From Saccostrea echinata (lineage: Eukaryota), in NCBI RefSeq assembly GCF_033153115.1, contig NW_026889778.1, positions 9,052,001 through 9,116,000 on the forward strand: a stretch of 64,000 bases of DNA, given 5' to 3'. Shown here in pieces: positions 11,449 through 61,084 of this stretch (the stretch's first letter is position 1; each line of letters begins with the position of its first letter). Position numbers and translations under genes: made by a program. Below the pieces are notes generated by a model, which worked only from the letters and a program-made list of their open reading frames with translations, did not search any database and had not been told where the DNA came from.

Positions 11449-14400
11449 ATGAAAGGAATATATGCCTTTATTGTGATTTGTTGCATTCTCAACTTGCATC
11501 TGATACAAGGGTATTACACAACAGGGGTTATTCGGGACAAATGTTTAGAAAATGAGCTGTCAACAACCAACATATACATTGCATCAACTCGTATAATCTA
11601 CCATGTCTGTATACCCTCACCATTGAACGAAAAACGTGGTTCTTTAGGTAAGTACAGTACCTTTGCTTCTCATTTAACAGATATAACAAATACGTGAATA
11701 AGACTTTTTGGATTAAGTGTTGAACTTTCTTTTTATTGTTGAAATTTTTGAATCCATACTTTCATCAGATATTACAGTGAGGGGTTGGAGATGCCCTGGC
11801 GATTCTTTCTCGTTTGGTGCGGTCGCTGGGAGAATGAGATGTTGTACAAAGGAAGGTGAGTTGTGCGTTCGTATTTAAACACCTCAAACATCAACTTTAC
11901 ATTTAAATGTGGTTAGTGAGCTAATTAAAGTGAAATTAAATACTTTTTTTTAAATATTATACATGTACTTAAGAATCAATAACATGAAGTCTACTTCCTT
12001 TATAAATAAAAAGGTTTGGAGGTTAAGAGCTGCATTTTTGACTCGAATATCTACAACTTTGACAACGACTTTGTATCGAGTCCTCCCAAGGGGTTTCATC
12101 TAAAGGGTCGCTTTGGTTTAGGGTAAGATTTTTTATTTGATTAGTATAGTTGAAACATATGCCATAAAACCTGAATTAAACTATTTCGGGGCCTCGATTT
12201 TAAAGCAAGCAACCACAAGACCAGCAACTTTTACTCCAAACTGCCAATTCAAGCGCTTGGTAAAGGATCAGTTGCACCCTATCTTTTATCGACTAAGGGG
12301 TTGAACCCACAACCTTCGGATCACATATCGAGCGCCCTGTTGACCGAGCTTCTGCGACGGTCTGGATAGATTGATTGTATGTTGTTGTACATCCCGTTCG
12401 AGAATTTTTAACTCATACAGAGGCCTCGCCATATTCCGGTTAAGGGCTTCAAATTTAGACCTTTACTCTGCCATTGAGCAGTGAAGGTTCCTTACAGTGC
12501 CAACGCCTATCGTGACACAAGGCCTCAGTTTTAAGGTCTCATCCGAAGGACCCGCAACATTCACTTCAAAGTGCAGAGTGCTTGGCGAAGAAATAGTTGC
12601 TACCTATTTTTTTTTTTTTATCGACTTAGGTCAGTCGCGGCCAAGATTCGAACAAACGACCTTCTGATCACAGAGTGAGCGCCCTACCGACCAAGCTACC
12701 GTGACGGCTTGTGACGGCCTGGAAAGTCGAAAGCAAAAACATTTAGCTCTGTGTGTACATTAAAGGGATTGACAGCCAGGCATTCTGAAGTGCTGCTTTC
12801 AAATCATCAACTGTATCAATATTCATCAGATGTCTTTTTATTTGATTTTTATAAGATGAGCCAAATTTTCCAATAAAACTGATATCAGGAGATTGAGCAG
12901 GCCATGGTAAGGTTGGAATGTTATTTTCTTTCCAGGCTTTACTCATTCTTGAGACATGAGGTGGAGCGTTGTCTTCCTGAAATATGTCTGGTTTGTTTGT
13001 GAAATATTTGGCTTTGACTGACCACAGGTTCTCATCTTTTTGTATTCCTCACTGTCCATATTTCCGTCTATGCAAGTTAATAATCCCTGAATTTGGTGTA
13101 TTGTGCAACCCCACACCATTACTTTCAAGTTCCTGCCATTATGTCGCTTCAGGTGGCCAATGCACTCGGGAAGGTACTTCTCTCGTTTTGTTCTCCAGAC
13201 TTTAACAACCCCACAAGTTATAGGCACTCACAGGTACTGCCATTTCTTCACTAAATTTGATCTTACTCCAGTTTTGGGTTACTGTCCATCTAAACTTACT
13301 TCTGACCAAGAAACTCGACGTACTTTGTTCATTTGTCTGACTCCCAACTTCTTGACGATAGCTCGCTTTCTCGGGTCATACTTGTGAATGGATATTGGGA
13401 TTCTTCTTTTTGACACAGATGCATGGTTAAAGATATTGAATTCATTAGTGATTTCCAGCAAAGTTGATGTCCGATTCCCCCGATTAGGTATCCGACAACT
13501 CCCATCATCCAGGTTTTATATAGGTCGCCCTGATCTGTGACGATTTTCAATAGAGTCGCTCTCCTGATACCGCTTCAAAAACCTACACATTGTTGCTGGA
13601 GTTATTTTCAATACTTTAGCTATTTCACTTTGTTTAAAACTGCTGTTAAGTAACTCCAAAACAATTGTTTTTGTCTCATCAGTCATTTCCTGTCGTTTGG
13701 TATCCATTGTAAACCAATGGCGGTCTATAGTAGAAAAAACACTTGTACCTAAGTCTATACACTGAAAAGCTGACACAGTCATATCAACGGTGTTTTGCGA
13801 GAAGCACTGACTTTTAAAGTTGACGACTTACTTTGACATTTAAACTGTGTTATGTACGGAGGTACGGAATTGATAATAGACATGAAAACCTTATTAGTGG
13901 TTATAGATCTGGTGTTAGGGGCACAAACATGATTTACCGGTATGCAATCAACGCAAGAGATGAAGGGAGGCAGAATTATATAACTTAAATTACCTTATTC
14001 GTAATGGGTAGTATCTCCTTTCAATCTCATTTTCCGGAGGAATCAAATAAGGAAGAAAAACATCCCGGAAGAAAAACTAAGCAAGAATTGTGAAGAGAGG
14101 GGATTGAGGGTAGGGTGGTTGCCGTTCCCTTCCTAGACAACGTAAAATGTGCTCTGAAATGGCCCATTATTATCGTTTTATTAACTGTTCAGCTTAATAT
14201 TTATATCGCAAAAGAGCTTCCGTATATTGTCATAGTGTAAAAGTAAGCCGTCGTTTGTAAAAGTCAGCGCTTCTCGCGAAAGTCCAATAGTCACTCCTAT
14301 ACATGACAACAACGTTTGACGCTCTAGCTATATGTATCGAATACTTTATTTGTATAAACGCGACTTCAGCAATCAAAATTCAAAATGGTGGAAAATTTTA

Positions 14401-14553
14401 CTCATTTTTGTCACCATCCTGCAGATGACTGCGATACTACACGTTATTTTACTAATGTTGATGCATTTACTTCTCATCCACAGAAACCCGAACGACCCAT
14501 TCGGTTATAGGTTAGAATATTGTTCTCTGCAACGTCGACGTGATCAATATTGA
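11449..14553 (+). CDS. Secreted cysteine-rich protein, paralog 1 (154 aa; divergent dermatopontin/HAAF-like, inferred)
   Basis: Exons 11449-11647, 11769-11855, 12014-12122, 14484-14553; all introns GT-AG, phases 1,1,2; spliced ORF open. Signal peptide MKGIYAFIVICCILNLHLIQG, then CLENEL...CIPSP...WRCPGD...RCCTKEGLEVKSC...PPKGFHLKGR...YCSLQ. Exon-by-exon homology to two other copies in the window. Confidence 0.88.
12366..12707 (-). mobile_element. tRNA-derived SINE with V-type core (second partial copy at ~12195-12360)
   Basis: Reverse strand: tRNA-like head, TTCGGATGAGACC...AAAAC core, CACTGCTCAATGGC, TTCTCGAACGGGA tail with CAAT repeats; homologous to 43781-44128. Confidence 0.8.
12743..13707 (-). 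pseudogene. Tc1/mariner transposase relic in intron 3 of paralog 1
   Basis: Frameshifted pieces: HTH (SEIAKVLKITPATMCRFLKRY...RSGRP), KVWR...EKYLPEC, VMVWGC, LPWPAQSPDIS. Confidence 0.88.
13792..14284. mobile_element. Degenerate MITE (~50-bp imperfect TIRs)
   Basis: TTTTGCGAGAAGCACTGACTTTT...GACGACTTACTTT vs AAAGTAAGCCGTCG...AAAAGTCAGCGCTTCTCGCGAAA. Confidence 0.6.
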
Positions 14554-60600: not shown

Positions 60601-61084
60601 CATTGACATTTTAATTGTAAATTTAAATTGAATTAAAAACATTCTCTGTCTAGAAAATATTAATATTTGATAAGCACAGAACAATGTGTAGGAGCTATTG
60701 TTCCCATAACATTTTTACAACTACATCTGTTATATACTCAATTTCATACAAACTTACATTTAACAGCACATAGGAAAGAAATCAAGAAATTTGTCAACTA
60801 ATGTGTCCTTTGTTACTTTTTAAAAAGGAACCATCGGTATAATTAGACTAGACTAAAATACACGTAGAAAGGGAAAGGATTTTTCTTTTACCTATGAAAG
60901 TACACTTTTCGTTAAATGGTGAAGGTATGCAACCAAAGAAAAAATCTGATGAAAAGTATATGATGGTTGTTCGTAGCTCATTTTCTAAACAGCTTTGGCG
61001 AATAACCTCTGTTTTGTAATATCCTTGTGTAAAATATGAGTCAAGAATGCAACACAGCACAACTAAGGAAAGAAATGTCTTCAT
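57689..61084 (-). CDS. Secreted cysteine-rich protein, paralog 3 (154 aa)
   Basis: Exons 61084-60892, 59400-59299, 58891-58783, 57749-57689; GT-AG, phases 1,1,2; open to TAA; AATAAA (-) at 57514-57509. Confidence 0.9.
57913..58170 (+). mobile_element. tRNA SINE with 10-bp TSD in intron 3 of paralog 3
   Basis: TSD ACAATTTACT at 57903-57912 and 58171-58180; TTCGGATGAGACCGTTTAAAACGAGGTCC core. Confidence 0.85.

Follow-up and report, generated by a model that had tools for sequence, protein, structure and literature searches.

The 64,000-nucleotide (nt) stretch of the oyster Saccostrea echinata analyzed here (contig NW_026889778.1, positions 9,052,001 to 9,116,000; hereafter the window) contains three related genes, which we call A, B and C, for small cysteine-rich proteins with a predicted signal peptide. 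As judged from sequence, they belong to an orphan family of the genus Saccostrea within the content of the collections searched, and this raises the question of where such a family comes from and what its products may do. We conclude that the family very probably descends from dermatopontin (DERM, PF14704), and the strongest line for this descent is the position of its introns.

The family comprises seven proteins from only two Saccostrea species. A word-indexed protein search found six of them among 664 candidates (three from S. echinata and three from S. cucullata), and a HMMER search over 1.84 billion representatives gave two matches at an expect value (E) of 0.001 or below, both family members. 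A search of GTDB genomes returned three matches of 12–17 residues, which were judged to be chance, and a search of viral contigs returned none. A previous analysis of the DNA letters, the sequence-only reading, had described the genes as a hidden, lineage-specific and rapidly diverging offshoot resembling dermatopontin and HAAF; the restriction to one lineage is borne out by these searches. In the literature, no paper on these genes was found and none with their locus or accession numbers, in a search that stopped short of supplements, so expression tables may hold the genes unnamed.

Structure and splicing of the three genes

Joining the predicted exons by their coordinates gives, for each of A, B and C, four coding exons of 61–202 nt, GT–AG introns of phases 1, 1 and 2 and a stop-free frame, which confirms the three intact genes with identical intron phases proposed earlier. 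Gene A (11449–14553, forward strand) encodes 154 amino acids, gene B (35121–38442, forward strand) 161 and gene C (61084–57689, reverse strand) 154, with pairwise identities of 57–69%. The window has the base composition of AT-rich animal DNA (35% G+C), and tblastn with all three proteins found no additional exon copies within its 64 kb. The gene features are as follows.

11449..11647, forward: gene A coding exon 1, signal peptide and repeat 1, Cys3 replaced by Arg; intron phase 1
11769..11855, forward: gene A exon 2 (87 nt; 132 nt in DERM genes), encoding repeat 2; phase 1
12014..12122, forward: gene A exon 3 (109 nt; 124 nt in DERM genes), encoding repeat 3; phase 2
14484..14553, forward: gene A exon 4, last Cys, to the stop codon
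7339..7424, forward: probable non-coding first exon of gene A, GTAAG donor at its end, placed by 77% identity over 91 nt to sequence 5' of C
35121..35322, forward: gene B coding exon 1, with an acceptor immediately 5' of 35115; phase 1
35502..35603, forward: gene B exon 2, 102 nt; phase 1; contig joints
35737..35845, forward: gene B exon 3, 109 nt; phase 2; contig joints
38370..38442, forward: gene B exon 4, to the stop codon; contig continues to 38556 (3' untranslated region)
60892..61084, reverse: gene C coding exon 1; phase 1
59299..59400, reverse: gene C exon 2, 102 nt; phase 1
58783..58891, reverse: gene C exon 3, 109 nt; phase 2
57689..57749, reverse: gene C exon 4, 61 nt, to the stop codon
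61748..61833, reverse: probable non-coding first exon of gene C, GTAAG donor at its end, placed by its match to sequence 5' of A

Two 91-nt stretches 5' of A (7339–7429, forward) and of C (61833–61743, reverse) are 77% identical and both have a GTAAG donor at their end, and they are probably non-coding first exons; no counterpart of this stretch was found for B. An assembly gap of 143 N (10799–10941) lies about 500 nt 5' of the start codon of gene A, within its probable first intron.

Gene B is spliced as predicted. A 704-nt contig of sequencing run X1 (depth 19) covers its four exons in order and skips 179, 133 and 2524 nt, which are exactly its three predicted introns; X1 was taken as RNA by guess, no matching run being recorded as RNA. 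All three junctions of B are therefore present in the contig, and the comparison with reads, which the sequence-only reading had called for, was confined to this gene. The contig differs from gene B at five positions and carries 96 extra nt on its 5' side, beyond the compared stretch. One difference, C>T at 38431, makes the codon for Gln159 of B a stop, three residues short of the full length and at the natural end of C. The spliced contig was found in one of the three runs compared, and the other two (X2 and X3, from one sample) gave short unspliced pieces only, which are uninformative on expression.

The genes had been called hidden, and they are indeed absent from the open reading frame (ORF) track; however, the proteins of A and B are already in RefSeq, where they are identical letter for letter to XP_061186397.1 (P0002 in our set) and XP_061186398.1 (P0001), "uncharacterized" S. 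echinata proteins of LOC133194457 and LOC133194458. A and B are thus unnamed rather than hidden. The protein of gene C was not returned by any search of protein collections. A fourth paralog, P0003 (LOC133194456), is 86% identical to A and lies outside the window.

In all three proteins, residues 20–22 read QGY after a hydrophobic N-terminus, in agreement with the signal peptide described earlier, although the cleavage site itself is a prediction. The 11-residue Kyte–Doolittle maximum (2.8–3.2) starts at residue 4 and spans residues 4–14, and later segments all stay at or below 1.7, so that no membrane anchor is seen on this scale. The proposed frame of eight cysteines (C-C-C-C-CC-C-C) is exact in C; the mature protein of A has seven, with Arg at the place of Cys3, and that of B has nine, with an extra Cys at residue 26. 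The last-repeat sequence quoted in the sequence-only reading proved to be that of gene A.

Intron positions shared with dermatopontin genes

For comparison we assembled a DERM reference set of 75 loci by a motif scan of metagenomes, followed by 19 DERM proteins found from the locus most similar to the family; all 18 of the aligned reference proteins match Pfam DERM. In nine of the 75 loci, all nine Pfam DERM, the middle repeat is separated from its neighbours, and it is in these that introns can be compared. The donor of intron 1 falls in codon Cys3+4, phase 1, in all four loci in which exon 1 was found, and the acceptor is in place in seven of eight and a codon off in the other. Intron 2 lies at codon Cys6+4 (equal to Cys7−6), phase 1, with the donor in place in eight of nine, one being a codon off, and the acceptor in six of six. 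Intron 3 is in phase 2, ten codons after a conserved Gly at Cys7+25, in five of five.

Introns 1 and 2 of A, B and C lie in exactly the same codons and phases as in these loci. The three genes also share the Gly at Cys7+25 and have a phase 2 intron 3, which follows that Gly by five codons. A coding sequence split into four exons, with introns of phases 1, 1 and 2, is thus common to the family and the nine intron-rich DERM loci, while exon 2 is 30–45 nt shorter in A, B and C (87–102 against 132 nt) and exon 3 is 15 nt shorter (109 against 124 nt). An AG at the acceptor place is frequent by coding chance, being present in 8 of 17 unbroken repeats, and the weight of the intron evidence therefore falls on the separate exons and the donors. 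Several gene models (P0004, P0010, P0019 and P0022–P0024) end exactly at the third-intron position and apparently read into the intron. Because P0004 ends at the family's shifted position, the shift of intron 3 is common to S. cucullata.

Cysteine spacing and predicted structure

The gaps between successive cysteines are 19–21, 8–9, 11, 15–20, 0, 9 and 42 in the family and 25, 9, 16, 24–25, 0, 9 and 43 in DERM; the gaps of 8–9, 0, 9 and 42 match and the three loop gaps differ. In the joint alignment six of the eight core cysteines are invariant and two nearly so, with A missing Cys3.

Dermatopontin (PF14704) was the top match by structure in both Atlas searches, with models of P0003 and P0001 (predicted local distance difference test, pLDDT, 0.73 and 0.69) aligning over 125–126 residues with template modelling (TM) scores of 0.72 and 0.69. 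In the Atlas feature ranking DERM-bearing clusters also came first (0.91), DERM being present on only 20% of the members of that cluster. AlphaFold2 (AF2) failed on the six-row family alignment (pLDDT 39.6), and a fold search with that model (best Z 3.7) was discarded as meaningless. When DERM rows were added, AF2 gave a model at pLDDT 84.4 with an all-beta domain of 11 strands and a helix at residues 3–22 that matches the predicted signal peptide. A three-repeat all-beta fold like that of DERM is thus found in predicted models. Foldseek of the 84.4-pLDDT model returned no match in the PDB at E ≤ 0.001 and, in a viral library, one uncharacterised giant-virus protein (E 4e-4). By sequence the PDB gave no match for the family profile and only chance rows for the DERM profile, and no solved dermatopontin structure was found by that search. 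The best rows of VIA-align were residues 545–716 of Vip3 (6vls; Z 5.1, root-mean-square deviation 4.5 over 100 residues) and the lectin WGA16 (3woc; Z 2.2). These domains, which we take to be beta-prisms, have in common with the family a three-fold all-beta arrangement only; their Z scores fall below what the tool counts as meaningful, and identities are 5–15%. The earlier suggestion of a dermatopontin-like fold stands on the Atlas matches, with no clear solved match, and together with the shared intron positions they uphold the proposed dermatopontin/HAAF ancestry.

Evidence weighing against dermatopontin descent

Several points weigh against this descent, and most concern sequence similarity, which by itself is marginal evidence. 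Family and DERM proteins are 14–22% identical. Pfam DERM (cut-off 28.3 bits) misses all four full-length proteins P0001–P0004 and nine exon translations; a weak Pfam row for P0004 (DUF7772, E 0.11) was ignored. The profile–profile comparison that had been proposed as a check cut both ways, since hhalign of the family against DERM gave E 7e-4 over the C-terminal 79 columns at a probability of only 27%. A DERM profile scored 6.0–12.9 bits on the seven mature proteins, six of them above the best of 2100 shuffles (6.1), and this profile was seeded from the locus chosen for its likeness to the family; an independent single-repeat DERM profile (138 repeats from 58 other loci) reached at best 2.9 bits, against shuffles of up to 9.5. 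The 84.4-pLDDT model leans on its DERM rows and shows compatibility rather than independence. Unnamed bacterial clusters reach TM 0.74–0.77, equal to or above DERM, and the fold is therefore wider than the Pfam DERM family. As for the introns, intron 3 of the family sits five codons upstream of its place in DERM genes, four other DERM loci (L008, L020, L052 and L062) read through the sites of introns 1 and 2 and have only the last intron, and the nine loci with introns fall under three record prefixes, one of which accounts for six of them, and so represent few independent animals.

The rival that would draw on these points is an independent small cysteine-rich beta protein with a convergent three-repeat fold. 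It could claim the missing Pfam match, the silence of the independent repeat profile and the high-scoring bacterial clusters; against it stand two introns at the same codon and phase, a third that agrees in phase and loop, and the matching inter-repeat cysteine spacing of 0, 9 and 42–43. As shared introns and cysteine spacing are hard to obtain by convergence, we consider this origin implausible and give it very little credence.

Loss of the dermatopontin motifs

The family differs most from DERM in its motifs. DRx[WFY], which we take to be the signature of each DERM repeat, no paper text with the motif having been found, is absent from all seven family proteins and present in two to three copies in all 19 DERM references, as the sequence-only reading had noted for DRxW; since the references were reached through the DRxW motif, its conservation among them is partly built in. 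SxHxN and NxW/FD, two motifs taken from the alignment, are likewise absent from all seven and present in one to four copies each in 19 of 19 references. A motif remnant, I-Y-N/T-F-D/E/K, remains at the corresponding place in repeat 3. The nucleotides lost from exons 1–3 coincide with the motif loops.

The distribution of conservation appears to be exchanged as well. In DERM the motif segments have a column identity of 0.74 against 0.40 elsewhere, while in the family the matching loops, taken as broad windows, have 0.44 against 0.73 elsewhere. These loops hold nearly all insertions and deletions (indels), concentrated in the repeat-2 loop; in two of the S. cucullata copies one such insertion is closed by cysteines. 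With the broad windows, which were drawn after the columns were seen, 0 and 4 of 20,000 random sets were equally variable; windows anchored on the cysteines gave loop identity of 0.48 against 0.65, with 846 and 1892 of 20,000 random sets equally variable, and because of this the swap of conserved and variable parts relative to DERM is suggestive, not proven. Invariant in the family are the cysteines and the segments CIPSP, WRCPG, RCCTK and PPKGFxLKGR. The proteins are basic (isoelectric point, pI, 8.2–9.1), and no N-glycosylation sequon was found in six of the seven, including A, B and C.

Family tree and selection

In the family tree B and C group together (100/100), as do the three S. cucullata copies (98/99), which points to separate expansions in S. 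echinata and S. cucullata. The tree is unrooted, as rooting on DERM was unusable with a connecting branch of about 5 changes per column. Nei–Gojobori ratios of nonsynonymous to synonymous change (dN/dS) among A, B and C are 0.43, 0.44 and 0.39 at dS 0.45–0.65, with bootstrap intervals of 0.24–0.71, and 42 positions between Cys1 and Cys8 are invariant across the two species. The ratios indicate that the present paralogs are under purifying selection, with no overall positive selection. The description "rapidly diverging" therefore fits the long branch from DERM and the low identity to it, but not the present paralogs, whose intervals all lie below 1.

Comparison with known systems

Dermatopontin/HAAF proteins and the Saccostrea family have in common a signal peptide followed by one three-repeat domain, the eight-cysteine order with its CC doublet and inter-repeat spacing, the predicted fold, and, for one set of DERM genes from animals, a coding sequence split into four exons (phases 1, 1 and 2) with introns 1 and 2 at identical positions. 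The family differs in that it lacks DRxW, SxHxN and NxW/FD, falls below Pfam detection, has one Trp against 5–10 in full-length DERM members, and has shortened repeats 1 and 2 along with the earlier intron 3 and the low identity given above. Mammalian dermatopontin has five disulfide loops, according to an excerpt of PMC7703894. Millepora cytotoxin-like proteins are, like the family, stand-alone diverged invertebrate DERM-domain proteins, and in snail plasma they were found bound to parasite proteins (excerpted in PMC5433772). The DERM domain is still recognisable in them, the likeness is by description only, and toxicity is not suggested for the Saccostrea family. Separately, the DERM repeats in marine metagenomes occur in several architectures (loci L017, L051, L024/L030/L044, L002/L022/L038 and L034/L037): joined to additional C-terminal domains, singly at the end of collagen-like G-x-y stretches, and as arrays of several repeats in protist-like transcripts.

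Proposed origin and function

We propose that an ordinary dermatopontin gene with four coding exons was duplicated in the ancestry of Saccostrea oysters, which would have produced a tandem family with four or more members (A, B, C and, beyond the window, P0003). The three ancestral HxNxxEDRxW hairpin loops would have been deleted in repeats 1 and 2 and rewritten in repeat 3; the conserved part would now be a scaffold with a new basic patch (RCCTK, PPKGFxLKGR), and the former motif loops would vary and take insertions. The predicted product consists of a signal helix and a single three-repeat domain of the DERM fold, all-beta and stapled by disulfides, about 133–140 amino acids long and without a catalytic motif, and it is likely to be a secreted, non-enzymatic binder. 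It lies outside PF14704 by profile and motifs, yet very probably descends from it, and in broad terms it probably functions as DERM does, as an adhesive binder.

What is bound may well have changed. Repeat symmetry suggests that the DERM motifs probably form a three-fold binding site with the loops meeting at one end. Because all three hallmark motifs are lost, a different binding partner is probable, and agglutination of the classical three-site kind is unlikely. More likely is a new specificity that resides in either the basic patch or the variable loops, and the target would most likely be anionic glycans, either of microbes or of mucus and cell surfaces, in haemolymph or pallial mucus. As A and B have odd numbers of cysteines, they may be able to form covalent dimers. 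Taken as a whole, this account of a tandem family with a new specificity is somewhat probable, and a role in defence or surface recognition, which we assign by analogy, falls just short of that. We prefer defence because molluscan dermatopontins bind parasite proteins in plasma and respond to infection: extracts of the relevant papers describe snail dermatopontins that bind schistosome larval proteins (PMC5433772), oyster "dermatopontin 2" transcripts that shift on bacterial challenge (PMC4133350) and an infection response of molluscan dermatopontins (PMC4133350, PMC13619432).

Defence or surface recognition is favoured over two other roles that are compatible with the same ancestry. One is structural, in which the protein would be part of the extracellular matrix or of the shell or cement matrix, with its basic patch as the site that binds chitin, collagen or acidic shell proteins. 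Shell roles are also reported for molluscan dermatopontins (in part of the text of PMC7747718, PMC6359903 and PMC4023409), including two recruitments to the shell in gastropods alongside general matrix roles (PMC7747718). The basic pI, the purifying selection and the small size of the cluster would suit such a role. The missing sequons do not, as snail shell dermatopontin is reportedly N-glycosylated, nor does the separate copy expansion in the two species, a pattern known more from defence than from structural genes, and we regard a matrix role as rather unlikely. The other is gamete recognition, with an egg-coat or sperm-surface protein isolating Saccostrea species and the variable loops as its species-specific face. 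Restriction to one genus, the repeat-2 loop indels with the disulfide-closed insertion in two S. cucullata copies, and a spliced contig in one of three runs, which fits narrow expression, would agree with this; the paralog dN/dS lies well below 1, unlike that of lysin and bindin, which are under positive selection, and the role seems improbable.

The remaining rival grants the family little present role and sees drifting duplicates of a dermatopontin copy without function or motifs, in a decaying cluster. The conserved cysteine missing from A, the B allele with its early stop, the lack of C in the protein collection and the mobile-element debris between the genes could be read in this way. Yet frames and splice sites are intact at dS 0.45–0.65 with dN/dS of about 0.4, the 42 invariant positions persist across two species, B is spliced, and the stop of the B allele coincides with the natural end of C. 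Decay is already largely refuted and very improbable. A bolder version of our own proposal, which we hold to be unlikely, is that the dermatopontin scaffold has been turned inside out: the most conserved DERM loops (across animals, protists and other DERM bearers) would have become hypervariable recognition loops that tolerate insertions and are carried by an unchanging disulfide frame. The outcome would be a diversifying receptor family peculiar to the genus and directed at microbes or own-species gametes, in which the unpaired cysteines of A and B could form covalent dimers that restore multivalency.

Surroundings of the genes in the window

Between A and B, positions 24500–30300 hold an element fragment that, from its gene set, we take to be Polinton/Maverick-like, with the following ORFs.

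27778–29028: rve integrase with chromodomain
27028–27567: BIR-domain ORF
26063–26626, reverse: double PC4 ORF
25291–25830, reverse: ORF matching phrog_335

Tandem-repeat arrays with a unit of about 166–168 nt lie at 960–1540, 7830–8610 and 39030–40680 and are presumably typical oyster satellite or Helitron-linked repeats. Two related broken ORFs (49888–50436 and 55277–55747, reverse) have the appearance of Harbinger-type transposase remnants, with no significant Pfam match.

Implications

These results give an apparent orphan family an origin: sequence searches confine it to one oyster genus, and its introns and predicted fold tie it to an ancient family. No new kind of system is opened by it; rather, it is an example of "lineage-specific" molluscan secreted genes as disguised old scaffolds. 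It also provides a natural deletion experiment on dermatopontin, in that a relative predicted to fold without all three motifs makes it testable whether these serve a binding site or folding. If a role in defence or between gametes is true, the family would be relevant to tropical oyster farming and to the barriers between species.

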